NCBI GenBank assembly: GCA_020536535.1
Contig: JAHLWZ010000475.1
Location: 1-64,000, forward strand
DNA length: 64,000 nt
Direction: 5' to 3'
Source of the DNA: Pelomyxa schiedti
Taxonomy: Eukaryota > Protista > Evosea
Below, one piece after another: positions 3,701 to 53,550 of the stretch; position 1 is the stretch's first letter; each line of letters opens with the position of its first letter. A program made the translations under genes and the position numbers. Below the pieces are notes generated by a model. That model worked only from the letters and a program-made list of their open reading frames with translations, was not told where the DNA came from and made no database searches.

Positions 3701-4166
3701 TTTCAGCAACAGACATTGGCTGCAGTTGCATTTGCTGCTGCTGACGTGTCTCCTGCAGTTGCTGCTGACTATTTTGGGGAGCTGACGACCCAGACTGAGA
3801 CTCTGGGATCTGCTGTTGGCGTGGATGTTGTTGTTGTTGCTGCTGAGGAAAGTCGCTGCCGCCATCTTCCACGGTGTCGCGTTGGTCCAATTGGGGCAAT
3901 TGCGGGGGTTCCAATTGGGCCAGTGTAGTAGGAGCCCCCAGTGTCGCTGGGCGCGACTGAACGGGGATCTGTTGTGAAGCCTGAGGGCCGACGGGCAGGG
4001 GAGTGGTGTTTGTTGTTGGCGAAGAGGGGGCGTTGGTGAGAACGGGGGTGGCTCCCATAAGTGCGTTGTTGTGGGTGCTGGGAAACAGCAACGGGGAGGT
4101 GCCTTGCTGTGGAGCCTGGGAAGACGACCCTGTCCACGCTTCCTTGGGGTAGCGACGTGCTGACAT
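746..4166 (-). CDS. SEC24: COPII coat subunit Sec24 (multi-exon)
   Basis: Gln/Pro-rich N-terminus, then [19 protein letters not shown], a zinc finger ([17 protein letters not shown]), [73 protein letters not shown] and gelsolin-like C-terminus [12 protein letters not shown]. Confidence 0.93.
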
Positions 4167-4627
4167 GAAACTGGTGTTAGGCAGTGACCTTTGAATAATA
4201 TTTTTTTTTCCTCTCTTGGCCATTTCTTCGTTGTGTCACCTGCTCAGTCCAGAGGATCTAGACCGGAATTGATCACATCAAGACCCACAATTACTTCCTG
4301 TTGAGTGGTGGTGCTTATTAAGCAGAGAGGAGGGGAGAGTTTTTCTGCAGTAGAAAGGAGTGGCTCTGTGACGGGAAACCCGAAGCTAAGGGAACAGATC
4401 CGTCACCTTCAGTGATCCTGTCACTGGGAACACTCCCTATGTATGCTGAATACCTTTTTTTGTAAGTGGGGAAACTGTGCTCCAATTCTCGTTGAGAGTG
4501 GCTCCTTGTGGCTAGATTGCCACCCACACTTGTGCACTCTTCACAAAACAAAATTGTTCAGATCGAGAAAACTGTGTTGGTGTCATAGAAACAGTGATTT
4601 ATTTGAAATTCAACGATGCCCAACACA

Positions 4628-9254: not shown

Positions 9255-11231
9255 AGTGGGTGCCGACAAAAAACCGGGCCCCCCTCACTGTAATTAATTC
9301 CTCTTTACAAAAAATTGTTTTGGACACCCTGGTGGCTGCCGCACCCCATCTCACTCATTCTTGTTGGTCGCCGGCAGGCCAACGGAGGCACCAAAAACTC
9401 GCCACTCACACATGGTGCACCTTGCTTTCTTGAGAAAAGTTTCAGGATACTGGCATTTGAGTCCAGGACTGTGATCACTCCGCCTTTTTGGGTAGGTCTG
9501 TGACGCTAATCCGGCAACTTGGTTTTTGGTTGGTGTTGTGTACCGTGGAGAACTACTAGATACGTCACGCGTCACAGTTCAATGCAAGGTTGGCGTTCGT
9601 ACGGACAGAGGGAAAAAAAAGTGCAACAACATCACCCACACACCAGACAAGCACCATCCGCATTGGGCAACCATCTGATGAGGACTCCTCCTTATGTGAG
9701 TCCGATAATCGTATCCACCAACAGTGAAGGTAACCACACTTTTATCAGAGAGCAAGTTCCGAGAAGCAGCGAGATCATAGTTCAGGTTAACCAAAGAGCC
9801 AGAAATTCAACAACCTGTTGCACCTTCCAAGGCACACTAAGTTGAGTTCCTCAATTTTGTGTCTGTTGAGCTTTTGTGATAGGCCCAAGTCATGGTATCT
9901 ATCATTCACGTGAATTTCCGGGAAAACAATCAGTTGCTCAAACAGGTATTACTTATTTTAATTTAAAAAAACCCCTCTTCATTTCGTTTTTTCCCCTTTG
10001 TGTTGGTTTTTCTTCCACAGCCTTAGTGACAATGGAAACGAGGTGGGAGTGGTTATCAAACCTTTTTTTTTTTAAAAAAAAAAACCTCTTATTTGTGTTT
10101 TGTTTTGTCTTTGTCTTGTTTAATTTGATTAATTTTTTTTATTTTGTTTTTAGTCTTGTTTTAAACTTACTGTTGTATTCCATTTCCTCATGGTACCTAG
10201 GGCTGATTCCATGCCACACTCCATCAGACTCCAACAGACCAAGCCAAACCTACAGGTATCTTCTCTGTTTCTTTTTTGAGTTCTCACACTTTCTAACCAA
10301 GTAGTGTTACAACTTGTCAGCTGCAGAGATGACAGGCTGTCATCATCACAGTAAATCCCTCTCCTTTGTATTGTCACCCCACTCAACCATGATACATAGG
10401 TACCCAGACCCAGGCCCCAATGTGGCACACCCCATCCCCTTTCTGCATTTCCAACAGTGACACTGGTATGTGTCTTCTTTTTTTTTTTTTCCCCTGCACC
10501 TCATATATGTTATTCAGATGGTGGACCTGCTTGACAATCTATCACTAGGGTACACTCCCTTTCCCTTTTATTACCACCATTCAACAACAACAGGGACAAT
10601 GGATGCCACTGACTTGGAATTTGGTTTGTACCCTTCCCATAGCCTTCCCTGGTCCCACTAAGCTGCTGGCCAGACACCCGGAATGATGATGGAGAGCACA
10701 GCACTGATTCCAAAGCAGAGACCCGGAATGATGGAGCCCAGCCATGACAAACAGCGCTACTTTGAGTTTGGGTATGATTGTTCTTCTACCTTCTAACTGC
10801 CAACGAAATTGTTCAGGTGGAAACATGTGGATGGCAACAGCAAGGCGTACTGCAGCCAGCCCCTTGCTCCTGTATCCTTCCATGTGCTCCCAGGACCCCT
10901 GGCTCTGGCTACACATGCTGCCCCAGCAGCCCACTACACCTTACACCCACGCCTAAGGGAACAAAAAAAAAAGGAATAAAAAAAAGCTAGCACAGATTGG
11001 CAGAACCCGAACTGGGGCCACTGTGTACACAAATTGGGCCCCACTCTGGGCTCCCACCTCCCAAACTGGGGCCAGTTTGACTTCAGGGTGATATCACACG
11101 TAACCAATGGGAATGAGAGTGTTAATACTTCCGAAAAGAACCAGTGCATCTTTGCTACAGAAGACTGATGCTGTGTCCCACTCTCAGAGGTCGAACGTCA
11201 AAAGGGAGAAGAAAATGGTTTTCGAAGCTAT

Positions 11232-13745
11232 CTAGTATTGTTTGCTATTTCCACGTCGGCCTCGTGACGACTTCCTCCTGTTGGGTGTGTAGCGGTTGTT
11301 TCGCAACGGGTTGTTGGAATGTGAGCCCGTGCTGGTGTTTGGGGACAAGGTGGGGTCTGACTCCTCACCACCAGGTGCTGTGGAGTTCCAATAGGGGGGG
11401 TAATATACAGGAGTAACTGTCGGTTGCTGTATGTGGAAAATAGATGGGGGCTGTGACAAAGAAATTTGTGGTGGGTCCGGGTATGCTGCTGTAAGTCCGG
11501 TGTATGGCAGCTCAGTAGTTGAAACTGGTGGCTGTATGTAAGTAGCTGGAAAGAATGATCTCGGACCAGGTCTTGTGTATTGTGGCTCAACAATTGGATG
11601 TACATAGGTTGCTTGTGGTTGCTCTTGATGTGGAGGAAGAACTTGCGGCGTCTGGAGAGGCACAGACTGAGCCAACACAAAACTTACTTGGCTAGTTTTC
11701 AGTAGCATTAGGTAGTGAGGAACTCCATTGGCGGAGTGTGCAGATTTTAGTTCACAGGAGCTGCAAACCAACTCCTCTCCAGGGCAATTGACACACACGA
11801 AAATTTTTCCTCCTGGTTGTCCCAGTATATCTGCTACTCGCATTTCGCAGCACGAACAGTGATCAAAGCCTTCCTCAAATGTGTGCTGATGTGCCTCCTG
11901 TCTTTGCATTTGTAGATCAGCAGCGTTTTTGGCCTGCCACAGCTGTCTGACTTTTTCTTCACGCACTGTTGACAGTGTGAGAAGAATTTGGGGAAAACTT
12001 GTTGCAACATTCAGGTCTGCAATGAATGTTCAAATGGCTGAGCCCTCTTTCCTTTGTATGAACAAATTGATCAAGGCACTTCGCACAATACCTTTGTTTT
12101 GTTGGCTTTTTAGAGGAGTGGGAAGAGGACGTACTCCTGCCTGCAATGAGGGCAAGTCATATGTGCACAACCTGGGTCTTCACCTTTTTTCTTCCACTCC
12201 TCTTGATTGAGAATCGGAACAAAGCACTTCTGACATGGAATAGATACAATTTCGACCAGTCTTTTAGCTTGCTCCTCTTCTGTGTCATGTCACATAATAC
12301 AAACTTTGAAATAAAAAACCTCTTAGCTTGGATTCTAACAAAGCACGGTGTTGACTTCGGGATGCCTCACGTTCCACTTGCTCCTTTATCACTTTTTCGT
12401 ATTGCGCACATGATATGAGGTAATGATAGGGATATCTTTTGCACAGAGTACAAAATTCCGTATTGCAAGTTTCTACCTGAAGAGGGTGAAAACTAGTACA
12501 AGTCATAAGATTTATTTCATACTGGGCATATTGCAAGTTCCCGTTCGTCGGGGTTTGACCGTTCAATAGTGCCACAGCAGTCCGGTTTTGGGCAACACAC
12601 ATAGAGGGTGGAGGAAGAGGTTACTGCCCTTAGTGACAAGTCTGTTGCATAAAAAAAATTATTCCAAGAGGTTACGAAGTTGTAAAGCTGACCTAAATAT
12701 TTGTCAAAGGTGCCACCATCAACTAACTTTTGAATTTCGGTCTGTGTGTAGAGATGTTCACATGTGGGGCACTTGATGGGAAAAGTTCTGTCTTGAATCT
12801 TCCCTGCAATATATTGTTGAACGCAAGCATTGCACAAATCGTGTGCTGCACTGCAAACCGCTTGTGAAACTTACACAGGTCAATAAGGAAACTATAATGG
12901 ATGACTGTACATTTCATGTCCTCTGGAATGTCCTCCAAGCATATCTGGCAACTAAATGTTTTAATCACTGGCGCAGCTTGTTGTGGAGCGGCGACAGTCT
13001 CTTGTGTTTGTGGCCATATCTCAAAATTTACCAAATTGAATTCTACACCAGGATGCTCTGTCAGGAGATGAATTTGAAAAGCCTCGAGATCATCTTCTCC
13101 ATGTTGGCGACCACATACAGGACAAGAGTAGATTCCCTGATTGTTTGTTGTATGTCCAAGTCTAGACTGCTGAAGTTGTGCAGGAGCATCAACAACATGC
13201 ACGCGTGGAGAGTTGGCTGCCGCTGATTCAATTCCGGTAGGAGCAGCAACTGGGGAGCAAAAAGCAGCCTCATTGTCAGTGTCGTCATCAGTGTCACTTG
13301 GAGCGGAAAATGTTACGCCATTGCCCAGCGGTCTGGGCTGCACTGCGCGAGACTCCAAAGGAGTAGTAGCTTTTCCAGGTACCAGTAGCTCGTAAGTAGC
13401 GTTCCTCCTCGGCAAAACAAACATGCCTTCGTAAGCACCGCCGTCCTGAACGGAGAAAATATCGTCGGTTTCCCGCATCAACCCCGCACCAACGGTTTCC
13501 TGTCGTAGTCGCCACAGTGAAGGATGAGATCCGAGATTAAAGTGTCGCTCCAGATCCGCCGCAGGCACAGCCACCACTTGGTACGGCATGAATACCCCAA
13601 CGTATGGCTCCACAGATTCGTACATCTTCACCTCCAGATAAACGCCGGCGGCATTTTCCTCGCTTTGACAGCCGGCCCCGGCTGAGTTGTCATCGTCCTT
13701 GGGGGGAAGGAAATGCGCCCCGTTCGGCCCCTCGTTGCGCTGCAT
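11232..13745 (-). CDS. RBR (RING1-IBR-RING2) E3 ubiquitin ligase with extra C2H2 and ZZ-like zinc fingers
   Basis: C2H2 CPVC..HLLTEH; RING1 CQIC..HTICNAC..CPTC; IBR CPKPDC..CPVC..FCTLC..H..C; RING2 CQKC..GCAHMTCPHC..YCAKC with the catalytic Cys; then HCSCC..CVNC..CSSC..H and a Pro-rich tail. Confidence 0.88.
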
Positions 13746-14005
13746 CGTTTCGTCGTGATTTTATTTATTCGTCACGTCGGGCAAGCAGCGGCTCGCGAGG
13801 TCGTGTTGGTAGATGTTTGTGGGACTTGCAGAAAACTCAAATTGCGCGCCAATTTGGTGCTTTGATTAGTCAATCTCTCACAGAGCTTCGGTAATAGGGT
13901 TGCTCAGAGGAAGTTCCAGTTGTCACCTTGGTCGTGTGGGTACACAGGAAACTGGTGTTTTATTGCTTCCAAACAAATAAATTTTTTTTCCGTGCAATCA
14001 CGTGC

Positions 14006-14998
14006 ATGCTTACCATCGCAACGTCTGAGAGTCACCCAATATACGCCAATGTTGTGGGGTTGCCCACCGGTGTCCCTGGCTCACTGGGTGCGACTCCCGT
14101 TTTTGTATTTTTGTTTGTTTTCTTGGTTGGGGCCATGCAACGTGTAATGTGCACTCACTTGAATATTCACTTTTTATGACAGCACTCACGTATTAACGCT
14201 TACATATTCTTTTTGATTCGTTGACTGCTGTCCAGGTTGGCTCCAGGCAAAGTTCAAAAGCACTCAAAGACAAAGATGCATTGGCAGAGGTATTTCAGTA
14301 CTATGTATTATATTATGAAGTCTTCAAATTACAAATTTATGTCTACCATATTTCTCCTTTTTTTTTCAACAACCACACAAAGGGATGTCCGGACAGACTT
14401 GATGAAGCTACAAAGTGACTACAACCTGTCTTTCCTCGTGACCCTGATGACCTCCCGTGAAATGGACACATGCCACATCCCGCACCTCTTCACAACGGCC
14501 GCTGAGCTACACATCGAGACGGCCCACTACCCCATCCCCGACGGCGGAATCCCTGCCGAGGACGACGCTTCCACCTCGGAATTCCTCGCACTAGTGGTGA
14601 GACTCACAAAGGCTGTTCTATCAGGCCGCACTGTCATCGTGCACTGCCTCGGGGGTCTGGGCAGGAGCGGGACAATGTGCTGTTGTGTTCTCATCATGCT
14701 CAACAGATTCCTCTTTCTATCATCTGGAAACATAACCACTACCCCTACAACTGCAACTGCGAATGCAATTGCAGAAACCGCAACTGGAAATGCAATTGCA
14801 ACTCCCGAAACAGCAACTGCAAGTGCGCATACAAATTCGGATGGACGCAGGGAAGTTCCCCTGAGCAGTGTGATTGCCTCAGTGCAGACAGCCAGGCCTG
14901 GTGCCATCAAGAGGAAACATCAGATGGACTTTGTTGGCAGGTTCTACAACAAGGCCTCCCTCCTCACCGAAGACCGCGTCAGGCAACTAATGTCATGA
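14006..14998 (+). CDS. CDKN3/KAP-like Cys-based protein phosphatase
   Basis: HYPIPDGGIP general-acid loop, VHCLGGLGRSG CX5R motif and RPGAI. RDVRTDL and the N-terminal SESHPI are typical of the CDKN3 family. Confidence 0.82.
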
Positions 14999-15162
14999 TT
15001 CCTGCACGCGTGACATTAAAAAAACAAGGGCCTTCAATTCTCCAATTTCCCCAAAAAATAATGATGACCTGAATCACAGAAACAAAGGCGAAAAAAAAAA
15101 GAAGCGAACAAACTACAAAAAAACAAAAAGAAAAAAAACCCATCGAACACACGAAGGGAGTT

Positions 15163-16133
15163 ATGTCTGACACAAGGCAGACAGCGAGATCTGGGAGCGA
15201 CAACAACATGACTACGGCACATCAAGTGGCAACGCTACAGACGTTGTTCCCTAACGCGCCGGTGTTTTTGATTGAAGCCGTTGTTTCGGCGTCACGAGGA
15301 AACATGGAAACAGCCGTTCAGTTGTTATTGTCCCTTGCCGGTCCTCCGACTAACTCTCCCCAGGTTTGTTGTTTTTTTGTTATTGTGACATTGTGCCCTT
15401 CTTCCGTGTCATTGTTTCATGGTTTTTCTTTGCGCAGTGTTCGTCTTATGCGGTGGCAGTAATTTTTTTTGAACATGTTTTAACTTGCTTGTAGGGAAAT
15501 GCTGTTTGTGGCCCACCACCACACCCACCACCGGCAAGGAATACTACTAACGGCCCTGCAACACGCACTGCCGTGGCGAATCCTCCTCCACCCCCGCCAC
15601 CCGCGGTGCAGATGCCTGCTTATCCGCCGTTTTACGGGGCTCCTCCTCCACCCCCAGCTTTCCCGGGCACTGGAGTTCTCGACGTTTCCTCACTCCTGCT
15701 GCAGGTCGAGAAGCAGCGCCAAGAGATAGAAATGCTTAGGATCCTACTGCAGCAATCACACACTCCCCCAACCACTCCCCCTACACCCCTAATTCCAACC
15801 CCACAAATCACCTCAACCCAAACCCTACATGTAAATACAATGCCCCCGCCCCCACCCGCCCTATCAACCGCAAACACCGCGAGCACTCTAGGGACCTCCG
15901 CAACACCAGCCACTGCCTCCAGTGCACTCCACAACAGCGCCACAAACCCTGACCCTGGCTCCCAATCATGGCTCTCACGAATGGTGTATGCACCGGTCAG
16001 GACCTTTGAGCAATGCCGGGACAGGATAGAGCAGCTCACAGTAGTCCAGCAATTCCTTCTCAACCGCGTGCACCCACCCTCTGCATCCACGTCCACATCA
16101 TCCAGCACACTCCCCCACTCCAAACGTTCCTAA
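15163..16133 (+). CDS. CUE-domain, proline-rich protein
   Basis: LQTLFPNAPVFLIEAVVSASRGNMETAVQLLLSL matches the CUE FP...LL pattern. An intron at about 15364-15495 is followed by a Pro-rich exon. Confidence 0.75.
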
Positions 16134-16243
16134 CAGCCAGAGTTGTAAATAATTGAGAAGAGCCCTGTTACTTCTATCTCCTTTCGTGCTGGCGTTTTAC
16201 TTTTTTCTCACGTTTTCGTGATTTTACGGGAAACCGATTCGGC

Positions 16244-19200
16244 ATGTACACCGGTGGGACAACAACGGGTGTTGTTGATGTGAGGGTGGCGTCATTTGCA
16301 CACGCTGACACCGTGGGCAACGTGTCTAGCCTCGTGGTAAGTTGCTTGTTTCGCCTCCGTGTATATGGCAAATTATGGTTCGCATTTTTGACTGGGTTCG
16401 CGATTGCAGGATAGGCGCATTGGAAAAACTGTGCGAAAGATCACTGGGAGCAGTTGCTCTGTGAGTGCAAATGGAGGGCTCGTGACGTCAGGCGCCAGTT
16501 TCGTCTCATTTTGGAGGAGGGGTTCCAATCGGGACTCTCTTGGGAATGGTCAATTTTGCTATGTTCTGTGCCGTAGTTTGGCTCCTCTACCTTGGGCTAT
16601 TGAGGTCAATGTAAGGGTCAAATCACACAGTGCTACAGGAACTTCCCTCCAGTTCCTTTTTTGCAGCAAATCCAAAGCAAATGTGTGTAGAGAGCACCCT
16701 TCACAGCTAGTCATATGAATATCCTAATATCCTGTTGTAGACAACCCAATGTCTGAGCAATGATCTCTATGTTATATGCCTACCTCAACTGGGGACCATG
16801 TGGTCTGTAATAGCGTTCAACTTGAGCAATTTGGTTAGCACCTACACACATGGTTGATTTGATGCAAATATTTAGTCGTACTGATGCCCGCAAAGGAAGA
16901 AGAGAATATAGGAGCCTCCAAAAAATTACTCTATTTGCAAGCCTAATGGTGTGGACTGTCTTCACTTCGGATGTCGAGTTGACCCTTGAGGTATCACAAG
17001 TTGATTAATCCTGGATGAACACTTATTCATCAAGACATTGCCGTTGGAGATGCACTATCCCCTTGAAACTGGAATATCCAACACATCATGGAGGGCATCT
17101 TACCTCTGGGTTAATGTGCCAGAGACAGTGGGTAATGGCAGTACCCAAACCATTGGCCCTCCAGAACTTGAGAAGCCAACTTCAGGGTCTACCAACACTG
17201 ATGATACAGACTTGGATGAAGCTGAGCTCTCGAGTTATATTGACAACTCTCTGGATGCCCCTGATTCCCCTGGAGTATTTAATTTCATTAAGTTCACGTT
17301 CTTTTCGGTAATATCATATTTAATAGGTGCCATCCAAACATAAAGGTTTTTCCCTTGGACTGTTGTATGAAAGGTATTGCATCAGACAACCACTAAACAC
17401 ACCTAGAAAGTCTTAAGAAAGCCACTTTATCACCCCAACCGATCATTCAGTTTCAAAAGGCACAACTTTTTTTCCCTGTGGCTTGTTAATTTTATTAAGA
17501 TTCTTGGTTGTAACGTGGGAGTGAAAGTATCATTTACATCTGATGGCAGTAATATTGTATTTCCAGCAAACAACATGATTATTAAGATGCATGTTAGGAC
17601 GGGTAGCTCACCTTCCTTATAATAGCAGAGCACTGCGAACTCTTTTATTTAATGGCTTCAGGCACTCAAATTAGCTTGCAAGCTCACTCCTATCCTGTAT
17701 GCCAAATAGCGAACTGTGACAACTCTTCATTGATGGTGTCTGCGGATCAAGGGAATCCCCCGATAGTCTGTCTCTGTTCTGCCTTTCCTTTTCCAACCTC
17801 TGTTCCTCAAGATCATACTTTGGAATATCGAAACAGGAACTGCACTCTGTGAGATAAGGACACAGTACCGGAAAGTACTGCAGTTAGGTCTTTCACGTGA
17901 TGGAGAAATGTTGGCTGCAGTAGCGGCCTCTCCCAGTGGTCTGTAAGATTACCTCTCACACCTTTTCATATTCTTTTAGGAAGAAAAGTACTCAGCCTCT
18001 TCGATACAAGAAATGTGTCGTCTTGTGGTTCTCGTTACATACTGCCTCAATTCTGGCTGACCTGTGCTAGGGAATATTGGAATCATTGCCACTCACTCTC
18101 ATAACTACAATGTGAATTGTATTATGTTCTTGCCAGGTAATAAGGCCAGACTCGTGGAATGTGGAAGTGGCATACGGTGTGTGTGTATTTTACAACCTAG
18201 CATTAAAACCTCTAGATTTTGGAGAGCAAAAGGCAATTCACTGCATTCTATTCCCGTAGTGCTGGGCGATTACTCCCTCAGAGAGTTCACCAGTGTCAGC
18301 TTCAGCTCAGAGTCCAGTCTTTCCGTTAATCGTCCCACAACAAAGGCGTTTTTCACTTATCTCAGACGGGACTGCAACTTTATGCGAGCACTACCTCTGG
18401 TGAAGTTCTTCAAATAGATTGCAACAATGTACACAGTGGCGGCATGTGTGTCAAGCAGATATTCGAGTTGCAATTGGGTCCCATTTTATCTTTATCTGTA
18501 TCTGTGGATCGTTGTATCATTGGTAATTTTACATTGCACTCTCTGTATAATTTGTGCACTGAAAACTATCAGGAAGTAAAAATGGATCTGTCAGTGTCTG
18601 GGCAATTGATTTCTCTTCATGCATAGTTGAAGCTCCCTTTGAAGGTTTTTTTCCTGCTAGACTTGCCTGAGTTGATTTCTTCTTTTGGGAGTGTAAGTAG
18701 TGTTGATGTTTCAAGGGATGGTCTATCTATTGTTGGATGTACTTCATCTGGGCAAATTGCACTTGTTTCACTTTCGAGTCCATTTCAGCAGGTTGCGAGT
18801 TTCTCAATGCTGAAGTCATTTATCTTATGCACAGACTGTTTTACTTCGTTCCCACATGCATAATGTAACTGCCATGGCGGTCGATCCCTTTTTCAATGAA
18901 GTCACAACAGTTTCTGCCACGTGATTCGTGTGTGTTCTAATCTACAAACTAGATTTCCCAATGTGATGTCAGAGTGTGGGATTTGAGTACTGCCCAGCAG
19001 CTCTATCACTTTGATATTGGCACAGATGTTGGTTTATGCATTTCTTATCACAAGAAACAACGTCATGTAGTCGCTTGTGGTTTTGAAAGTGGAGTGATCC
19101 GTATTCTCGGTGATTATAAATGATTAATTTCTTGCAAATGACTGGATATCAGATATCTCTCAAACTTGTGAGGTGTATAAATTGGATTGCCATAAGTACC

Positions 19201-26621: not shown

Positions 26622-29600
26622 ATGTTGTACCGCCTCCTTCTGCCCTTCCTCTGCATTTCAGTTCTGTCCCTGCACCTTTCCTCGTGCACGACCTGCAGCC
26701 TCACTCCCATAAGGGTGCAATTGCACTGGACCGCTCAGGCCCAGTTTGCCGGGTACTACTCAGCCGCTGTACGTGATTTCTATCCAAAAATCCCCCTGCC
26801 ACCCACTACACCAACATTTTTTTGCCCCAGAACAATCACATCTCCTAACCCCACGCTTCCCAAAGTCCTTTGGTTACTTTGAAGACGAATGCCTATCTGT
26901 TACCGTTGTGGCTGGGGGGCCTGGATACGATCCAGTTGAGGAATTGACATCTGGGAGATCACAATTCGCGAATCTGTGGGCTGCAACTGCACTTGCATCA
27001 CGTGAGGCCGGAACGAGATTGGTGACAGTGAGCCAATTATGGCAAAGTTCCAGTTTGGTTTGTGTCAGCTGGAAGTCATCTGGACTCTCAAATCCTAGTC
27101 ATTGGCCTGGTCACACTGTGGGAGTCTGGGATTCGAATGGATTAGCAACTGAGGTTGGTTGTGAAATTCAATTGTTATATTTCCAAAACTCCCTGCTCCT
27201 AGCTCAAGTTTCACTCAACTTTTTTTTCAGGTCCGAGTTTTGGGAAGAGAGTATGGAGTAAGTGAAAAGAACTATACTGAAGTGGCCCAAGGATTCACAG
27301 TCAGTCCTCTTTTTGATGGCAGTATTGAAGTAATATCTGCTACGACTTACAATGAGTTGTCTCAAATTCTGGAAACTGTGAATACTGAAACACAGGACAC
27401 GTACAAGACATCTGATTTGTACATCCTCAGATTAGCTGATAGTGGTGTGGTCATTGTGGAGGATAGCGTTGTTGTCACTGAGGAATTCCTTGCACAAAAT
27501 GAAACTATAGTGAAAGCTTTTTTAAAAGCTTTGACCCGTGGATGGCTAAAATGCCGACTTGATCCAGAATCCTGTGTTTCTCTTCTTCCCACCTCAGATG
27601 ACCACCAACGTTGGATGATGAATGAAGTCAACCGCATGTTGTGGCTGTTCCGGGGACAACCCTTTGGTGTGCCTACATCAAGTGCTTGGGACAGTACCCT
27701 ATCCTTGTGTCAGAGTGTCTCCACAACAAATCATCCGTTGAATAGCTCAGTATACACTGGTGCTTTGAATACGACTCTGCAACGTAGCGTTGTTCAGGAA
27801 CTGAGTGACGAAGGATATGATGTCTATGGGTTTAATTACACCTACACACAGTTTTCATGGTGCCTGAAGTGCAAGGCGGGATCTAAAGCAACTTTATGCC
27901 AGACAATGCCTGCCAGTAATAAAACCTCAACCACGCTAATTACAGCTATCTCGGTTCCTTTTGGAATCCTAGCACTTGCAGTAACTGCTATATCTATTGT
28001 ACTCCTTCTAAAGCTGAAAGAAGCTCGAAATAGAGTCCAGCAACTTGAAGACGAAATAGATAAGCACGCCAATTTCTCTGTTGTTGGTGCCCCCGCACAG
28101 AAGGCAATAGATTCTCTGATTCGACTAAAAAAGAAGCACTGGATTGGTACTTCTGACCATGATGAACTGAGCCGAGTTATATCCCTGATAGCAAGTAATA
28201 GATTATATAATGCAGATATGCTGGAAGAATCACTTCAAGCAAAAAAAGTGGATGCAGAAGTGGACGCCTTTCTTGTGGATCTACTTGTCAAGCATGATAA
28301 GGCAAACCCTTTGCACCTTCCTGAAAGCTCCACAACTAGCAGCATTATGACTATTCTTGTTGAAGCGGACCCAAGCATTTCGACTGATTCTCTTTTTAAA
28401 TCTATTGGAGATTCCCGGGCCACTAATGCTGGTTGGGATTTTGATATATTTTCCATGGCTCCCAATAGCATGCTTTCACGTGTGCTTTTTTCAAATCTCA
28501 AGCTGCATTAACTTCTCTCTAGCGCTAGAGATGATTGGCTTAGCATTACTTGAGGAATTTGGACTTGTGTCATACTTTCATTTGGATGTTAGAACTCTTG
28601 TTTCTTTTTTACGACGCCTCTGCAGTGGTTATAGCACTACTAATCCATATCATAATGCACTCCATGCTGCTGACGTAACGCAGGTAAAATTTTTGGCTGC
28701 GTAATTATATTCTAATACTGTTAGGCAATGGGTGTCCTTCTGTTCCAGTACCAGAAGTCAGCCCAAGCACAACACTGCAGTGCTGCTACTTTGTCACCCA
28801 TGGAACTTCTGTGTGCTGTAGTGGCTGCGCTGATACATGACTTCGCTCATCCAGGTATTCCATTTCCATATGTGAAGAACCTGCTTATTCTTCAAGGCGT
28901 AAACAATAACTTCATTACTGCCACAATGCATGAAATTGGGTTGCAACATAATTTCATTTCTCCACTAGAAAATATGCACGCTTCTGAAGCATTACAATTA
29001 CTTCTGAGGTGTCTCCTTCTCTCCCATTTTTCATTGTTTACCGGAAAAAGAAAGGAGAATAACTTTTTGACTGATCTGCCCTCAAATGAATATCTCGAGT
29101 TTCATCGGAACGTCGTAACACTCGTACTAGCAACAGACATGACGAGACACATTGAGATTACGGGACAAGTTACTGCCAAACTATCCACGACGAGTACTGG
29201 TGCCAAGTGAGCTCTTTCTAAACACGCCTTATTCTCACTGATGATTCCCAAAGGTCTTCCATAGATCACCTTCTCCTGCTACAGATAATGCTCAAGTATG
29301 CAGATATGCATTATAATAGTTTCTCCTAACGCAATCAACCTAAACAAAACAGGTTCGCAGATATCAGTGCACCGTCTCGCAAATGGCCTCAATGTGAGCG
29401 ATGGGCCACATTTGTTCAGAACGAATTCTACAGTCAAGGTGATAAGGAACGAGTACTGGGACTTACCATAAGTCCGGGAATGGACCGCACTACCACCAAT
29501 TGGCCCAAGTGCCAGGCCACGTTCATCAAATACGTGGTTCAGCCGCTAGCAGATTTGATGGACCAAATGATCAACCTCGAAACGCTTGGAATCAAGGAAA

Positions 29601-29647
29601 ACCTGAAAGATAACGAGGCCAGATGGATGGAATTAGATCACCAATGA
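26622..29647 (+). CDS. Single-pass receptor: signal peptide, NMT1/THI5-like solute-binding ectodomain, TM helix, coiled coil, class I cyclic-nucleotide phosphodiesterase
   Basis: Signal MLYRLLLPFLCISVLSL; NMT1/THI5 motifs VQLHWTAQAQFAGYYSA..GYFEDECLSV..GGP, ATTYNE, KAFLKALTRGW; TM ISVPFGILALAVTAISIVLLL; PDE motifs NPYHNALHAADVTQ, AALIHDFAHPGVNNNF, LENMH, LATDMTRH, KFADIS, EFYSQGDKER, QATFIKYVVQP. Confidence 0.92.
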
Positions 29648-44013: not shown

Positions 44014-44428
44014 TCCCGTGTCTTAGGAGACGGTTGGCAACACCGCCGCAAAACGATCAGGCTGGGGGTTCAACTTTTATCAAACTTGTTACCAGAAACC
44101 CCGTTTCAGGCAGGAGCGTAGATCTGGGTGAGAGAAGTTGGCAGAGAGTCAACAATCCCAAGGGGACTCCCACTGTGAATATTACTGGACACTTAAGGGA
44201 GGAGGCAATAATCTGTCTTGCCTTCAGTCAACTCCTTATCAAGGCCCACAGTAGACAATTCGAAGACTCTGCTACGGAGACTCTCTGTGCACACTACACC
44301 AATCCCACCAACACTATGTTGATGTTCGCCAACACATGAGAGGTTCGAGTGAGTGATTTCTGTGTGACAGCCGGGTGTTGGTGATGCGTTTCAAAGAAAC
44401 GACCAACTTGCGTTTCACTCAACAAAAG

Positions 44429-45643
44429 ATGGCCTTGAACAACCGGGTAGCGATAGAGGGTCACATTTCAGCACGGGACCAATTCATTGCCTTTGCAACT
44501 GGAGCGCTCGTCGAAAGGTGCGGAATCAAAAGCCCCGTCAGGAACGCGTGGTCTCAGTCTGTGTTGTGTGAGTTTGGCCGATCTTGGGTCGTGTGCCCCG
44601 CGAGGCAAATCGGTGTTGTTCTGGACCTGGAAGCGAGCTCTCTAAAAAACCTTATAAGGAGGCTCAACGTGTGGATGGAAGTGTCGCCAACCGGCGGGAT
44701 TGTGGGATGCGGGTGCCACGACTACTTGCGGGAGTTCCCGTACAAAGGGTATGCCAGAGGCAATGACGGAGACATTCAAGGAAGCATAGGCGGCGGAATG
44801 CTTGCCACGGTGTGGTCCAAGCGCTCCCTACGAATCTGCGAAGGCGACGGCCCACCTGCCAAAGCTTTTTCATGGCGCAGGAGGAGGCTTTCAAACCTGG
44901 CAGGTTGCAGCAGCCGCTGGATCGTCGTCGTCGTCGTGGAGAGATACTGCAGTCAGGTGATGGAAGTGTGGAGGGTGGGAAGGAACGGCACACTTTTGAG
45001 TGATTCGCATAAGATTGCGATCGAGCCGCTACTGAACTGGAGTTTCCTGTTGAGAGGCAAATACTGCTTGCAGGGTGACACTTTGGTGATCTCGGCACAC
45101 CTCACGAATGAGGTCACCGACGTATGGTTCATTGACTTGGTGAAGTCAATCGACGAAAACGCACTGGTGATTTCGAAGAAACTGCAGTTTCCTGGCCCTT
45201 CCCCCACCCACGATGTCCTCCTCAGCAATCCTATAACCACTGAACACATTGAAAACCTCTATGTTTCTGATGGCCACAGGACTACCCCTGGCAGAACGAA
45301 CCGCGTGTTATCTTCTGGAAGCATTACCCGGGAGTTCCAAGATTGCTGCTCTGCAATGTGCGTTGCCGATGACCTAATATGCACCCAGATAGTGCATCCC
45401 TTCAGGGTGCACAACTACTACCGGCTTCCAAACCTTTCCACTCCAGTTCTGTCAGTCCCCTCCAATCAGGTTATCGAAACCGTACCAATTGAAACAAGGG
45501 AAGGAGTCGTGGCAGTTCGATCCACGCCCTCTAGAATCTCAATCTTGGACGTTGCCTCTGCCACTGTCCTCGCCACAATCTCATTCCAAAGCTATTGGCC
45601 TGCACCAGTCTGCAAGTCAAATGAGAAAAACAGAATTTTTTAG
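44429..45643 (+). CDS. Intronless hypothetical protein, lineage-specific family, paralog 1
   Basis: Uninterrupted ORF of about 404 aa; strong similarity to 45681-46931. Confidence 0.8.
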   Translation: MALNNRVAIEGHISARDQFIAFATGALVERCGIKSPVRNAWSQSVLCEFGRSWVVCPARQIGVVLDLEASSLKNLIRRLNVWMEVSPTGGIVGCGCHDYLREFPYKGYARGNDGDIQGSIGGGMLATVWSKRSLRICEGDGPPAKAFSWRRRRLSNLAGCSSRWIVVVVVERYCSQVMEVWRVGRNGTLLSDSHKIAIEPLLNWSFLLRGKYCLQGDTLVISAHLTNEVTDVWFIDLVKSIDENALVISKKLQFPGPSPTHDVLLSNPITTEHIENLYVSDGHRTTPGRTNRVLSSGSITREFQDCCSAMCVADDLICTQIVHPFRVHNYYRLPNLSTPVLSVPSNQVIETVPIETREGVVAVRSTPSRISILDVASATVLATISFQSYWPAPVCKSNEKNRIF

Positions 45644-45680: not shown

Positions 45681-46931
45681 ATGAAGGACGAAGGAGCAAC
45701 AACTGCCACGAAAAAAAAAGAGAACCTACCAGGGACTCCCACAATTCTCAACACTCTGCAAGTTCAAGAAAACACCAGCCGGGCAACAATCGAGGGTCGC
45801 ATTTCGGCACGGAATCAGTTCGTCGCGCTGGCGGCGGGAGCACTCGTCGAAAGGTGCGGCCGAAACAGCCCCGTAAGGAGCGTGTGGTCTCAGTCTTTGT
45901 TGTGTGAGTTTGGCCGATCTTGGGTCGTGTGCGCCGTGAGGCAAATCGGTGTGATCCTGACCCTGGACCCGCATTGCACAAAAGCTCGAGAAAGGAGACT
46001 GAACGTGTGGATGGGCGTGTCGCCAACCGGTGGAATTGTGGGATGCGGGTGCCACCACTACGTGAGGGAATTCCCATCCAGATGTTCCACCACACTCCTG
46101 GGAAGCGATGGCGACATGGTGGGATGCATCGGCGGCGGAATTCATGCACGGTGGGACGCATGCACCATTCGAATCAATGACGGTGAGGGAATCCCCGTGA
46201 GGGTCTTTTCGTGGCCTGGAAAGCTTGTTACAACTCTGAGCACTTGCAGCAGCCGTTGGGTTGTGGTTGTGGCGGCTGATTTGGGTGATGCCAATCAATT
46301 CATGACAGTGTGGAGGGTGGGGATGAATGGCGCTCTGTTGCGTGATTCACATTCCATCAGGATAAAACCGAGCCTGGATAGTAGCTTCCTGTGGGGAAGC
46401 TGCTCTTGTTTGCAGGGTGACACTTTGGTGGTCTCTGGTCGGCCAAGCTCTTGTGACAGTTCTGAAGTCGTGTTTATCGACTTGGTGAAGACAATTGACG
46501 AGAACACCTTGGTTGTTTCCAAGACACAGTCGTTTCCTGGTTTCTCCTGCCATAACCTCGTTCTTTGCAATCCAATCGCAACTGAAAAAATCCAACAAGT
46601 GCAAAGTGGTGCCTCTAAGGGGACAGGGTTCAAAATCCGCCGCACATTGACCTGCGGTAGGAGTTCCCGCGTTATCAACGATTGTGCGGATACCTTTTGC
46701 ATTTCTGATGATATTGTATGCACCGAGGTAGTGTTCCCCGTCAGAGTGCATAACTATTTCCAGCTTCCCAATCTGTCCACTCCAGTTCTGTCAGTCCCCT
46801 CTGATCAAGTGATCAGAACAGTGCCACTTGAACCAAGGCAAGGAGTCGTGGCAGTTCAATCAACACCCTCTAGTATCTCAATCTTTGATGTGGTGTCTGC
46901 TTCTGTCCTTGCTGTTGTCTCCCTCACTTGA
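45681..46931 (+). CDS. Intronless hypothetical protein, lineage-specific family, paralog 2
   Basis: 416-aa ORF sharing ISARxQF..GALVERCG..SPVR..CEFGRSWVVC, RLNVWMxVSPTGGIVGCGCH, LQGDTLV and LPNLSTPVLSVPS with paralog 1. Confidence 0.8.
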   Translation: MKDEGATTATKKKENLPGTPTILNTLQVQENTSRATIEGRISARNQFVALAAGALVERCGRNSPVRSVWSQSLLCEFGRSWVVCAVRQIGVILTLDPHCTKARERRLNVWMGVSPTGGIVGCGCHHYVREFPSRCSTTLLGSDGDMVGCIGGGIHARWDACTIRINDGEGIPVRVFSWPGKLVTTLSTCSSRWVVVVAADLGDANQFMTVWRVGMNGALLRDSHSIRIKPSLDSSFLWGSCSCLQGDTLVVSGRPSSCDSSEVVFIDLVKTIDENTLVVSKTQSFPGFSCHNLVLCNPIATEKIQQVQSGASKGTGFKIRRTLTCGRSSRVINDCADTFCISDDIVCTEVVFPVRVHNYFQLPNLSTPVLSVPSDQVIRTVPLEPRQGVVAVQSTPSSISIFDVVSASVLAVVSLT

Positions 46932-47757: not shown

Positions 47758-49927
47758 ATGAGTGGCTCGACAACATCATCTGACGCAGAGGTGCAGGCAA
47801 CCCCTATAGTAATCGTAGCTGGGCCAGACCTTGACACTGGTACAATTAAAATATGTGAATAATGGTGGCTGGGCTCTAACTCAAATACCTCAGATTTCAC
47901 TTCAAAGTCTCATTTACTTGTCGATGGGAAGGAAGCCAGCATAGCCTTTCTGAGAGAATACTTCAGGAATGGAAAGGTTACCACTCGAGTGTCTCGTTTC
48001 TGGTTTTCTTAAACACTCTAGGATGCTGTGAGGGCTGATAAAACTGTCAGAAATAAGCAAGGCTACCTGTCACTCTCTGGAGTATACTTGAAACAGTTCC
48101 TCCATAAGAACAGGGGAGATGCCGGAGCTGCAACTGTAATACACTATTTCAATGACGCTACAGCCGCGGTATATGACCGGGCAGTTGCAAGTGCTTCTGT
48201 GCTGCTAATTAGCACCACTCTGATGCCCACTTGGAGCTTTGTTGAATCGCTGGCTGAGAGGGCCAAGAGAATCAATCCAACTATCACGGTTATCGCTGGT
48301 GGCGTAAGTGTATACAAGTAAGTAACTGCATCCGATTTCTTTATTGGTATTAAGTATGCCTCAGAATAGCCAAAGCGAGGAAAATGCTAGACGCCGGTCT
48401 TTTTGAGGCAACTCCCAAGCTGAGGGAGTTCTGGAAGTTTCTTATGAAACCGTACCAATCCAAAATTGACTTCGCAATTGCAAGTGTAGCCGGGGAACAG
48501 ATTTTGTTGACTCTCCTGGACTGTTTGGAACAGGTATGGATCTTTGTACTGGAAGAGAGTAGTCTAACTTCTTTGTTAAGGGATCTGATGCCTGGAAAAC
48601 CATGCCAAATGTGATATGGTACGATCCCTCGGTTGGGGATTTTCATATGAATGAGCGTGAGTCTTTACACCTTAACCTAACTTTGTAATAATTCAATTCC
48701 GTTAGTTGTGGAAGAAAAGTCTTCAGACTGTGAGGTTGATTGGTCACAAGAAAAGTGCCCTGAAGGGAGTATTTACCCAGTGCAGGCTGGGCAAGGATGC
48801 CCATACAAGTAAACTTTTCTGAAGTGACGCTGGGTCTAAATAAAGTTTGAAGGTGTGGTTTTTGCGATTTTGTTGCTCTAGAACCTGTTGTGTATCGATG
48901 CAACACCACTGCTGTCATGAATACTGTGAGGAGCATCCCCTTATACAAAGGACATAGACGAGTAAGTTTGTCTGTTTCTTTCCAAATCTAAATCATTTAA
49001 GGTATGGTTTACAAATGATAACTTGTTGGTCACACGCTCCGTGGCAGTGAATTTCCTGACAGAACTCATTCGACAGGATTTGCACTGTCGGTGGTACTCC
49101 TTTTTGAGGTTAACTAGACAAGAAGCGATTATCAATGCCAACATAACAATTTCAGACTTGACGCTGTTGCTGATGCAGAACTGGCCGATTTAATTGCCCA
49201 GTCAGGGTGTGAAAGAGCCAATTTTGGATTGGAGAGTGGAGATCAAACGATTCTCGATAATATGGAAAAGCATTGCCGTGTTCAGGTTACTTTTCCGTGC
49301 CAGTATGTTGTGACTTATTCCCAGCAGGATATTCCACGTGGCATCAATTTCCTCTTGGAACGGAACATAATTGTGCGTGTCTCTGTCATTGTGGGATACC
49401 CAGGAGAGACAAAGGAAACGATCATGAAGACAGTCAAACTTGTCAATAGCATCCAGGATACTGGAGTGTTTGAGGTGAAGGTATGAGTTTAGAAGGAAAA
49501 AGTAGTTTCCGCTCACTCATAATTTCCAAAGGTGTTCCCGCTTGGTATTTTCCCAATGGCGCCCATTTCTACTCGCCAACAGAGGCAAAGATGGGGCTTG
49601 CAAGGAATAGGACTTGTGTGGAAACATGACACAATGACATCAACGGAGGCGGCCTTCTATGCTGACAAGTTCGATGATTGGATCAGGCCCACAATTGGCT
49701 CTGTCTACTGCGCCGAGAACTGCTTCTTCTTTGACGTTGAGGATCCCGCAGCCAGAAGGACAGTGATCATACTCAGAAACATGGTACCACTATCATTTCC
49801 CCGAGATTGGTTGTCGCTAACCAAAATATAGCTCAGGAGGCGTTCAAGGGGTAACAGAGAAGATGGGGATCCAAGGACTGACGAGCAACTTTGGGAAGCC
49901 CTCGAGGCAGTTTTGACTTCGAACTGA
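47758..49927 (+). CDS. Cobalamin-binding radical SAM enzyme (class B, PhpK-like), intron-containing
   Basis: B12-domain LLISTT..ITVIAGG; CxxxCxxC GCPYKCGFC assembled across an intron (about 48799-48865); FTNDN, FGLESGDQTILDNMEK, IVGYPGET and WGLQG..WKHDTM. Confidence 0.88.
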
Positions 49928-50415
49928 TCTCAGGAGTTCAGTCAGTAAGGCTTCACTCTGAAATTTGTGAATAGAAGAAAGAATTTTCTGAAATTTGGTT
50001 TGAGCTTGTTGCTTCTTCTGCATTACATTTAGAATACTTGGCCAATTAAAAGAGGTGGCTGTATGAAACAAGGGAATAGAGCGCATTTGTGAAGTAAACT
50101 TCCAGTGCTGCCCCAGCCACACTCAGGTGAGACAGCAACAAAATTTTCCTATTGTGCCAGCCATACAGAATTCCGAGAGTTCCGATACACTTTGCCAATA
50201 TAGCAAAAGTTGCGAGACGCGTGTCGAAATTGGTTACGAGTACATCTTGTTCCTATGCGCACAACAAAGTCCTCCAGGGCAGTGGAAATTATTTCAACAT
50301 CTGCTCACTGTGCATTTACAACTCTTCTGCCTGGTGCTTTCGGTGGTTGGGTGCGCCAAACACCACGTACTTTTGTGGGCTCCGAAGAAATTTTTTCGGC
50401 TAAACCACAAGAAAG

Positions 50416-52215
50416 ATGGATCTGTCAATGGGTGCGGCCCATCATTCTTTCGGTTGCACCACCCGCGTTTTGTTTTTCACTCCTCAACCACAGGTACGAC
50501 GTGCTCCAACTGCGACGACGCCGCCGCGACCGTGTCGTGCGAGCACTGCGGTCTGCTGTGCCACCCCTGCTCGTCCCAGCTCCACGCAATGAAGGCGCTT
50601 TCGTGGCACACCCCCTCGCACCTGTCGTCATCTGAAACTGAAACTGCGCCTATGTCTGCGGCTACTTCTGCCCCCGGTACCACCACTGCGTCCTGCATGT
50701 CGGAAACGCATAAGAAACCAAGGTGCGCGGCGCACAACAAGAAGCTCGATCTGTTCTGCGTGAAGGACGAGGTGGCCGTGTGCGCCCACTGCATGCTGCT
50801 TGGGCCGCACAGGGACCCGGCGACGGGGACCCCCCACGCCTGCGAGTCTCTGGACCAGGCGGCGCAGAGGCTCAGGAGGAAGATGGACGACGAGAGGGCA
50901 CTCCTGTCAAAGCTGGGCGACGCGGTGTGCGCCGGGAGAAACCGGCTGCTTTTGTCGCAGAGGAGAATTGACGAGGTTTGTGTTTCCCCTGGGCATTCCT
51001 CTTACCACTCGACGAAGTACAAACTACGCAATTTTAAGAGGTGCGAGGCTGTCAAGATTGATGTTTACAAATCGTTTTCGGAACTACGAGCCGAAATTGG
51101 TGAAACAGAACGCAGATTGATTTCAGAGATAGAAACCTTCAACTGTGAGAAGGGTGAGTACCTGAGACACCTCACCTACACTAAACCTCCCTCTCTTTTT
51201 AAAGTATATATAACCTTGTGCAGCCGCCAATATAAGGAAATCGATTGAAGAGCTTGATGCATTATCGGGACCAATCGAACGATCACAATTAGAACTCAAG
51301 ACTGTTGACCTGCTTCCTTCCCTTCCATTTCTACAGGCCTTTGGGACCCACGTCACCCCGTTTCGCACACTTCAGGTACCTACCGAAGAGCCAATTGAGG
51401 AGATAGAATTTTCTGCAGCACGGGTGCAGGCCGTAACCCAACAGATCGCGTCATTGAGTGTGATTACTACTGGATTCTCAATCAAACACAGTTCGTTTTC
51501 AGTGAGCCCACAACAGTGCAACATTTGCATTGGAGACAGGACTGCGATCGAAGTCACACCATCCCTATGTGACATCGACGGACGAGCATGTGACAAGGCT
51601 ATGGCGTCAAAGATAGGATTACAGTTGCATGCTTTCTTCATTGTGTGTTTTTGCTCGCCACCAACTAGAGCATAATAAAATCACCAGAATGAACCCAATG
51701 AACAAGCCGTGAAAGTGAATGGGCTCTCTGTTGAAGTTGGCCCATTTGCGAAATCTGGGCATCACAAACTTTCACTGCAACTGCATCCATTCTCCACACC
51801 AGTTGTTGTGCCCCTGAATGTGGTTTCTCTGATTGCCATTGGGAAATCAAATGCAACATACCCAGGATACCGCATGATGACTTTGATAGACCTCACTGAG
51901 GAGCCAATGAAGACCAAAATATTTGATGCAGCCAATGCAAACGGTGGTGGGTTGCTGAGCCTCGACTCCTTCAAGCCATCTGATGTGTGCCAGATTCAGG
52001 AGGGATATGTGCAGTTTGGTGGGTCATGTAAATTCCTCCAGGCCACTGAAACCTTTCGAGAGGGTGACACACAACCAGCTGGGAAGTGGAACGCGTGCTA
52101 CCTGTATTCAAACACTGGTAGGAACTTCTCACAGTTGAGGAAAGAATGTGTATCAACAAATTCATGTGTCCAACGGACAGACACCATCCCCGCTCTTTTC
52201 ATCCACCAGCTGTAA
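50416..52215 (+). CDS. Tandem B-box zinc finger plus coiled-coil protein (RING-less, TRIM-like)
   Basis: CSNC..CEHC..CHPC..H..H (B-box 1), CAAH..FCVKD..VCAHC..H..H (B-box 2), then a coiled coil and a beta-rich C-terminus. Confidence 0.82.
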
Positions 52216-52294
52216 AATGGTTGTTTCTGTTTGGGACCCGTTAACCTATCTGTTGATTATTTTATTCACCATTCCCTGTTTTTTTATTCCCGTT

Positions 52295-53550
52295 ATGGCA
52301 ACCATAACCGCTGGGCAGGGGCAAGCTTGTGTTATCGATTGTGGGACAGGACTGACCAAGGTTGGACTTTCAATTGATGGTGTCGAAAATGGCCTTCCTC
52401 GTGGCTTATTCCCGGTATGTGTGTGTAGCTGCAATTTTCATAAGCAACTGACGTTTGGCATAACAGACAATAATTGGTAGACTGAGGCCGGCATTGTGCA
52501 CCGGCTTCGGCGTTCCTGAGTATTGTGGGAATGAGGCCCTGCAGAAACCACAGGGCCATTTGTTTTTCAAGCATCCCGTTGAGCGCGGAGTTGTGAACTT
52601 GTACGAAATTGTGGGTTGAGTCGAGTCCCTTCTTACTTAGACCTTATAGTTGTTTTTCATTTTAACAACTAGCTTAGGAGTCAATTTATACACATATATT
52701 TAATTCAGTACTTCGTATTGCTTCTGATGAGCACTCTATCCTGATTGCGGAACCATCACTCAACCCAAATGCAAGTAGCGAAAAATTGATTCAGATTCTA
52801 TTTGAAACTTTCACTGCTCCAGCTGCTTACCTGGCCAATGATGCACTTCTTTCTCTAATATCTTCTGGCCGGACCACTGGAATTGTCATTGACTGTGGAG
52901 AAGGAATCACACGGTTTGCTCCTATTATAGATGGAACACTGACTACTAGTGCCACTGCACGAGTCGAACTGGCCGGCTGTGACCTGACTGATTTCATGAG
53001 TACCATCCTGAGCCAGCATGGAAATTCTTTGTCAGAAAGTATTTCCGACCGCGCCATTGTAAAGGATATAAAGGAGCATATTCCATATGTTGCATTGAAC
53101 TTTGATGAAGAGATGGGAGCTGATCCCCCACAAAGCAAAAAGACTTGTCAACTTCCAGATAAGAGAGTTATCAATCTACCGGACAAACTTTTCCGGTGCC
53201 CAGAAGCTCTCTTCCGACCTGAGCTCATTGGGAAGAAGACACCCGGCATACACCAGTTTTGTGCAACGTCAATATCCCAATGTGATGCATCAATCCACCC
53301 TCAACTTTATGGAAACATAATTCTGTGCGGAGGCTCGTCGATGTTCCCTGGAATGCAAGAGAGATTGCAAAAAGAGATTTCAATCTCTGCACCCTCACAC
53401 AGCACTAAGGTAATAGCTACTCCTGACCGCAGATACTCTGTGTGGCTAGGTGGATGTATTGTTGCCTCCCACAGCACCTTCGAACAAATGTGCATTTCCA
53501 AGGCAGAATACGATGACTATGGCCCAGGTATAGTGAACTCGAAGTGCTGA
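52295..53550 (+). CDS. Divergent actin / actin-related protein
   Basis: CVIDCGTGLTKVG, HPVERGVV, EPSLNP, QILFETF, SSGRTTGIVIDCGEG, LAGCDLTD, FRCPEALF, LYGNIILCGGSSMFPG and YSVWLGG. Confidence 0.92.

Follow-up and report, generated by a model that had tools for sequence, protein, structure and literature searches.

An intron-rich gene for a two-domain radical SAM protein in Pelomyxa schiedti

The window analyzed here comprises 64,000 nucleotides of the forward strand of contig JAHLWZ010000475.1 from P. schiedti, an anaerobic protist, as the initial annotation had supposed of the host. The window contains a predicted gene for a protein of 551 amino acids, which starts with the ATG at position 47758 and whose stop codon ends at 49927. 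The model consists of 12 exons and 11 GT-AG introns of 40–54 nucleotides each. Its product shares 96.6% identity (over 551 columns) with P0002 and 97.5% with P0001, two database records labeled only "radical SAM protein [Pelomyxa schiedti]". The features of the gene and of the encoded protein are as follows.

47758..49927, + strand: gene for the 551-residue B12-domain radical SAM protein (predicted model, open coding sequence of 1656 nucleotides)
47758-47839, 47894-47976, 48022-48317, 48365-48533, 48581-48656, 48706-48808, + strand: exons 1-6 of the gene model
48853-48961, 49002-49108, 49156-49285, 49328-49480, 49532-49783, 49832-49927, + strand: exons 7-12 of the gene model
48809..48852, + strand: intron 6, 44 nucleotides, GT-AG, phase 2 in codon 270, between C267 and C271
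47791..48717, + strand: N-terminal Rossmann-type domain, predicted to bind cobalamin (residues ∼12-240, exons 1-6; from the domain model of P0002)
48208..48219, + strand: ISTT, the "downstream" cobalamin motif after strand 3 (residues 118-121, including S119)
48298..48303, + strand: G148-G149, the Gly-Gly motif, predicted to accommodate the nucleotide tail of cobalamin
48492..48497, + strand: G197-E198, the Gly-Glu motif, where a helix begins
48798..48865, + strand: CxxxCxxC motif for the [4Fe-4S] cluster, CPYKCGFC (residues 267-274; C267, C271, and C274), split by intron 6
48777..49447, + strand: partial barrel of the radical SAM domain (residues ∼260-425), with FTNDN, GLESG, and GYPGET
49532..49924, + strand: C-terminal portion (residues 437-551), which includes the motif LxG....W.H.TM of the family
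49619-49636, + strand: WKHDTM (residues 466-471)

Contigs of RNA run X4 (study P1) match 7 of the 11 introns (introns 4–10), and contigs of run X5 (study P2; run type not recorded) match 9 (introns 3–11), with blurred ends at three of the nine contig joints. Intron 6, which had been proposed from the outset to interrupt the cluster-binding motif, is absent from the contigs of both runs, with GT..AG ends and in two separate studies. The spliced contigs are not identical to the window, one example being 21 mismatches over 254 letters, and thus demonstrate splicing in a near-identical copy or strain, not in the window's own copy. Third codon positions account for 35 of the 40 substitutions listed for X5, indicating purifying selection. 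No spliced contig spans introns 1 and 2; RNA contigs over exons 1 and 2 are absent, which says nothing on the expression of these exons. Both introns agree with the NCBI gene models and are also backed by indels in other DNA copies, where 18 of the 21 indels listed fall in introns, one in the leader, and two in the first codons. DNA run X1 contains the window sequence together with at least two variant copies. Other splice sites for introns 9 and 11 were dropped, and the sites chosen agree with NCBI's P0002.

Elsewhere in the window, 135 of the 201 long ORFs were scanned and returned eukaryotic families, e.g. actin, Sec23, B-box, and CRIB. Together with the introns, the spliced contigs, and the archamoeba relatives described below, these flanks confirm a real, intron-rich nuclear gene of Pelomyxa, and the initial view that it is no bacterial contaminant is borne out.

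Several other features were seen in the window. Directly upstream of the gene (44357-45640 and 45681-46928, + strand) lie two tandem ORFs of ∼420 amino acids, apparently intronless and clearly similar to each other, that have no Pfam match. Downstream, at 50067-53547 (+ strand), come genes for a B-box protein and a member of the actin family. At ∼7900-9070 (+ strand), ORFs start every 146 nucleotides (7901, 8047, 8193, 8339, 8485, 8631, and 8777), a spacing that suggests a tandem array. At 26713-29644 (+ strand), NMT1/THI5-like binding domains are immediately followed by cyclic-nucleotide phosphodiesterase exons, possibly forming one sensor-phosphodiesterase fusion.

Domain architecture and predicted cobalamin-binding motifs

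The initial annotation had described a B12-binding domain fused to a radical SAM core. The core stands: Pfam Radical_SAM (PF04055) matches P0002 with 58.9 bits against a cutoff of 29.5, and CxxxCxxC is invariant across all 103 rows of our alignment, so that by sequence the amoeba protein belongs to the radical SAM superfamily. The B12-binding model (PF02310), in turn, stays below its cutoff of 32.1 bits, with 20.3 bits (E 5e-4) for P0002 and 23.7 bits for exon 3. The cobalamin half of the claim therefore rests on motifs and fold.

Three cobalamin-binding motifs (S/T, Gly-Gly, and Gly-Glu) are defined in section 5 of PMC9204698. All three sit at the expected strand or helix positions of the N-terminal domain, and they are largely retained across the alignment. 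Of the 10 amoeba-clade and 93 bacterial rows, 8 and 93, respectively, have Ser-119, all have Gly-Gly, and 9 and 91 have Glu-198. The relative from Mastigella also retains the complete set. Cobalamin would thus be bound in a predicted base-off, His-off mode. By motif spacing, Met-123 is inferred to correspond to Trp-76 of TokK, and a leucine occupies this site in 73 of 93 bacterial proteins. A hydrophobic lower face is described as a mark of radical methylases in the accessible part of PMC12931638.

Amoeba and bacterial proteins differ at conserved positions of the barrel, for instance at Tyr-338, where the bacteria have an invariant arginine. Together with an overall identity of only 31–44% between the two groups, these differences suggest that the substrate of the amoeba enzyme may have changed.

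The predicted fold resembles cobalamin-dependent radical SAM enzymes

When the N-terminal domain of P0002 was folded alone (pLDDT 91.8), all eight matches at E ≤ 0.001 were to TokK, TsrM, OxsB, and CysS (TMq 0.45–0.54). AprD4, given as a non-binder of cobalamin in the part of PMC12931638 available, is not among the matches listed for the isolated domain. The model of the whole protein (pLDDT 84) is less discriminating. Its top match is AprD4 with a Z-score of 21.1, and MgmA, TsrM, CysS, OxsB, and the methylthiotransferase MtaB follow at 19.8–21.0; the whole fold does not set the cobalamin enzymes apart from AprD4 or MtaB. Judged from motifs and fold together, the enzyme is very probably cobalamin-dependent.

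Family assignment

Among NCBIfam families, the P-methyltransferase PhpK (TIGR04479) scores best, with 201.9 bits over residues 33-487 against a cutoff of 600. It is also the top family for all seven relatives scanned, and query and relatives range from 194 to 330 bits, all below 600. Many relatives carry the JGI label "p-methyltransferase". The PhpK-like motifs noted initially are therefore present, with ISTT at residues 118-121, WKHDTM at 466-471, and PhpK as the best-scoring named family, but the score remains at 202 of the 600 bits required for membership. No phosphonate- or phosphinate-pathway family was found among the neighbor ORFs scanned.

Models of BchE, HpnJ, and lipid-biosynthesis B12/radical SAM proteins score 50–88 bits, and the HpnR model scores 21.9 bits against a cutoff of 650; HpnP is absent among the 22 families listed for the query. 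In the ESM Atlas, the protein matches radical SAM clusters without names, the top three of which are almost entirely bacterial.

Methylthiotransferases (MiaB, RimO, MtaB, and the eukaryotic forms), a placement among whose eukaryotic forms would have refuted the initial annotation, were rejected. Their models reach 21–39 bits against cutoffs of 251–357, a TRAM domain gives no match at E ≤ 1, and there are no conserved cysteines upstream of CxxxCxxC that could hold an auxiliary cluster, only Cys-267, Cys-271, and Cys-274 being conserved.

A multicopy family in three archamoeba genera

Besides P0001 and P0002, four further P. schiedti records (P0004, P0005, P0054, and P0055) share 40–43% identity with the protein. 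EukProt holds one relative each from Mastigamoeba balamuthi (P0059) and Mastigella eilhardi (P0068; Archamoebae), so that a multicopy family is common to three archamoeba genera. Three proteins without an organism name (P0003, P0056, and P0057) group inside the amoeba clade. The contig of P0057 (L083) shows no introns and has an A/C-rich leader; at ∼520-575 it contains a frame change at a T run, a likely assembly error that shortened the P0057 record.

The phylogeny called for initially placed the nine amoeba-clade rows of a 28-row LG+G4 tree in one clade (99/96) nested among bacteria. Within it, Mastigamoeba branches first, followed by Mastigella and then by the Pelomyxa-type paralogs. A PVC clade is sister to the amoebae (93/91, unstarred). 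Without Mastigella (27-row LG+G4 tree), the corresponding values are 100/98 for the amoeba clade and 96/92 for the PVC sister. The rows of both trees were picked by hand; an 86-row quick tree supports the amoeba clade with 96 and resolves no sister group for it. Named bacterial relatives belong to Kiritimatiellae, Lentisphaerae, Verrucomicrobiota, Planctomycetota, Desulfobacterales, and Elusimicrobia, and viral contigs contain distant relatives only (best E 1e-22). A clade of 561-amino acid proteins from Desulfobacteraceae first looked nearest; the tree makes it an outer clade, and it has no conserved neighbors. The simplest reading of these sequences is a single gain from bacteria before the three genera split, likely followed by duplication in Pelomyxa.

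Other architectures occur among P0123, P0133, and P0280: proteins of 2331 and 2096 amino acids, each matched over four separate regions, may be tandem fusions of radical SAM units, and an 841-amino acid near-clade member is fused to AraC domains.

PMC10711303 and PMC8887013 give MetH a cytosolic prediction in P. schiedti, M. balamuthi, M. eilhardi, and three further free-living species; the entry is blank for Entamoeba histolytica and Endolimax. The MetH entries of the three species indicate that these amoebae use B12.

The bacterial sister clade co-occurs with an SHC-like cyclase

A near-clade profile matched 11 of 64 genomes of one bacterial order, 10 of them at E < 1e-200. The eleventh match (G410) is an outer-clade member, leaving 10 sister-clade carriers. 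A PF13243 cyclase is present in 9 of these 10 genomes versus 16 of the 54 others (p 5.5e-4, kinship ignored), and a DUF116-polyprenyl synthase in 10 of 10 versus 15 of 54 (p 2.2e-5, kinship ignored). G440 has no cyclase match at E ≤ 1e-10. Carriers and non-carriers of this order are alike in genome size. Among planctomycetes (n = 401), all three sister-clade carriers, two of which have nearly identical copies, possess both genes, against a cyclase background of 27/101. Counting any triterpenoid cyclase, 13 of the 14 bacterial near-clade genomes have one. All bacterial genomes surveyed for the cyclase are drafts.

Inspection of the bacterial gene neighborhoods, likewise suggested initially, found physical linkage to terpenoid genes at only 2 of 14 near-clade loci. 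At L252, the B12 radical SAM gene lies inside an operon, between the DUF116-polyprenyl synthase and a prenyltransferase-toroid gene, and at L255 it stands head-to-head to the gene of a class II cyclase with a retained DxDD motif. Over 21 cyclase loci, the conserved PVC set consists of ferredoxin, radical SAM protein, DUF116-polyprenyl synthase, toroid, and cyclase. At L262-L281, L252, and L255, a PQQ-type propeller also accompanies this set.

Scored against true SHC, the linked cyclase reaches 83.6 bits against 431, and it resembles planctomycete clusters. An "SHC-like" clade of PVC cyclases has been reported without an assigned function, according to the sections of PMC12324236 and PMC7306690 at hand, which contain no mention of a B12 radical SAM partner. 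By host range, intact DxDD, and gene context, the linked cyclase is a candidate member of this clade.

Other neighbors differ between loci. Acyl transferases adjoin the gene at L282, L283, and L080, an AMP-binding/acyltransferase protein also at L283, and a carrier protein with an SAM methyltransferase at L291; outer clades adjoin genes for FeeM, lipid A acyltransferase-like proteins, and FadL. The L080 cluster (2281-17410) combines this acyl transferase with two PhpK-like genes of the B12 radical SAM type, two additional radical SAM genes, UbiA, and a methyltransferase. At L018 (44-7948), an outer-clade relative follows directly behind genes for acetyl-CoA synthase and the corrinoid Fe-S protein.

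The outer clades give a mixed picture and show no tie to the cyclase. An SHC-like cyclase is found in five of eight outer PVC carriers, and a strong cyclase match in none of 15 outer Desulfobacterota carriers; TIGR01507 had no match in 11 of the 15 outer carriers tested. G1130, the sole near-clade Desulfobacterota carrier among 401 genomes, has no SHC-like cyclase. Its true SHC was rejected as support and is uninformative, because six of eight genomes of its family carry one. On the amoeba side, the archamoeba papers and supplements searched, which are curated subsets, have no entry for squalene, hopene, tetrahymanol, or a cyclase. The Mastigamoeba supplement lacks even the KO of methionine synthase, which makes its blank for the cyclase uninformative.

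Proposed function and mechanism

Since the bacterial sister clade travels with genes for a ring-shaped terpenoid, its enzyme may methylate such a lipid. The broad guess of lipid methylation made initially gained ground from the cyclase link, and the guess of phosphonate chemistry gained none (202 of 600 bits, no phosphinate-pathway family among the neighbor ORFs scanned). For the amoeba protein, radical C-methylation is the probable, putative chemistry. That it acts on a polycyclic terpenoid lipid as a cobalamin-dependent radical C-methyltransferase is a tentative assignment, somewhat short of an even chance, and a terpenoid substrate in the amoeba as well is slightly less probable still.

By analogy to known class B chemistry (described in PMC12931638, as far as accessible), cob(I)alamin would take a methyl group from one molecule of SAM, and the [4Fe-4S] cluster would cleave a second one to yield the 5′-deoxyadenosyl radical. 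This radical would abstract a hydrogen from an unactivated carbon of the substrate, and the resulting substrate radical would take the methyl group from methylcobalamin. Ferredoxin or flavodoxin would reset the cofactors. Gene context suggests that in PVC bacteria the sister enzyme may optionally methylate, and so tailor, what the SHC-like cyclase makes, much as HpnP and HpnR do with hopanoids. In the amoebae, the enzyme might tailor a terpenoid that substitutes for sterols and is either self-made or taken from prey or symbionts. The full scenario, in which archamoebae took from PVC bacteria a B12 radical methylase for the SHC-like cyclase product and tailor an oxygen-independent sterol substitute with it, multiplied into paralogs in Pelomyxa, is speculative and, taken as a whole, rather unlikely.

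The strongest alternative keeps the cobalamin-dependent radical C-methyltransferase and replaces its substrate by an acyl chain, a carrier-bound molecule, or another non-terpenoid lipid, the cyclase link then reflecting shared ancestry of the host bacteria. The acyl transferase, AMP-binding/acyltransferase, and carrier neighbors named above speak for it, as do the FeeM, lipid A acyltransferase-like, and FadL genes beside the outer clades and the nearest folds TokK and CysS, which act on pantetheinylated substrates according to the titles of their structure entries. However, none of these neighbors recurs across the sister clade, whereas terpenoid genes occur in nearly all carrier genomes and are adjacent twice; we give this reading about one chance in four. 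Less probable again is cobalamin radical chemistry without methyl transfer, such as the closure of a ring, a rearrangement, or an oxidation of the OxsB or BchE type, with a lipid as the probable substrate. OxsB does appear among the matches of the N-terminal domain, and the BchE, HpnJ, and lipid-biosynthesis models score 50–88 bits, but the predicted lower-face residue is hydrophobic, which that of OxsB is not, and C-methyltransferases are by far the largest group of the class in the part of PMC12931638 available.

The remaining alternatives are improbable. A relic N-terminal domain without cobalamin, as in AprD4 or ArsL, would leave a plain radical SAM catalyst; the Pfam score below cutoff and the top Z-score of AprD4 would fit, but the S/T, Gly-Gly, and Gly-Glu motifs are near-invariant over 103 rows, and AprD4 is missing among the matches listed for the isolated domain. 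Marginally less credible is a PhpK-type P-methyltransferase that makes a C-P-C phosphinate, against whose top rank for the query and seven relatives (194–330 bits) and JGI labels stand scores far under 600 and the lack of phosphonate-pathway families in the neighbor ORFs scanned. Readings of the gene as a bacterial contaminant, as a pseudogene, or as a methylthiotransferase of the eukaryotic type can almost be discarded. MtaB and MiaB match the whole model with Z-scores of 18–20, and the window's own copy was not seen in spliced form, but these readings are contradicted by 11 introns that leave the frame open, by the spliced contigs and the eukaryotic flanks, by relatives in three archamoeba genera, by methylthiotransferase model scores of 21–39 bits, by the lack of conserved N-terminal cysteines, and by the missing TRAM match.

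Significance

Eukaryotic B12 enzymes are usually taken to be methionine synthase, methylmalonyl-CoA mutase, and some class II ribonucleotide reductases. With a class B family kept, spliced, and expanded among three anaerobic amoeba genera, this list would grow by radical methylation. If the speculative full scenario above holds, eukaryotes would have their first radical SAM enzyme that depends on cobalamin, and HpnP and HpnR would be joined by a third lineage of methylases for polycyclic terpenoids. Methylated terpane biomarkers could then also have a eukaryotic origin, and a methylase for such a lipid would bear on the reading of methylated terpane fossils. Through the link to the SHC-like operon, one gene set would address both the product of the PVC cyclase and the replacement of sterols in amoebae without oxygen.

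We found no description of a class B radical SAM family in a eukaryote in the literature searched, outside which most subscription journals lay. The sole paper found to combine "Pelomyxa schiedti" with "radical SAM" (PMC10579272) has the latter merely in a reference title in its available part, and two reviews of the cobalamin-dependent radical SAM class do not mention eukaryotes in the sections accessible.

Comparison with known systems

The amoeba protein shares the fold of its whole model and the S/T, Gly-Gly, and Gly-Glu motifs with TokK, TsrM, CysS, OxsB, and MgmA, the first four of which also match its isolated N-terminal domain. It differs from all five in sequence (10–17% identity) and in the long insertions of its N-terminal domain. 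With the P-methyltransferases PhpK and BcpD it has in common the architecture and the C-terminal G....W.H.TM region. In contrast to these, the amoeba gene is eukaryotic and intron-rich, its product scores far below the family cutoff, and the neighbor ORFs scanned beside its bacterial counterparts include no phosphinate-pathway family. MiaB, RimO, and MtaB possess a related radical SAM barrel, but the amoeba protein lacks the auxiliary-cluster cysteines and a TRAM match.

HpnP and HpnR methylate hopanoids at C-2 and C-3, respectively. PMC12931638 counts the two among the Csp3 methyltransferases, and they would share with the amoeba enzyme its proposed role, the optional methylation of a polycyclic terpenoid by a B12 radical SAM protein. 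The amoeba protein is distant from both in sequence, and the cyclase linked to its sister clade is SHC-like, not a true SHC. With the SHC-like clade of PVC bacteria, this co-occurring cyclase shares host range, the DxDD motif, and gene context.
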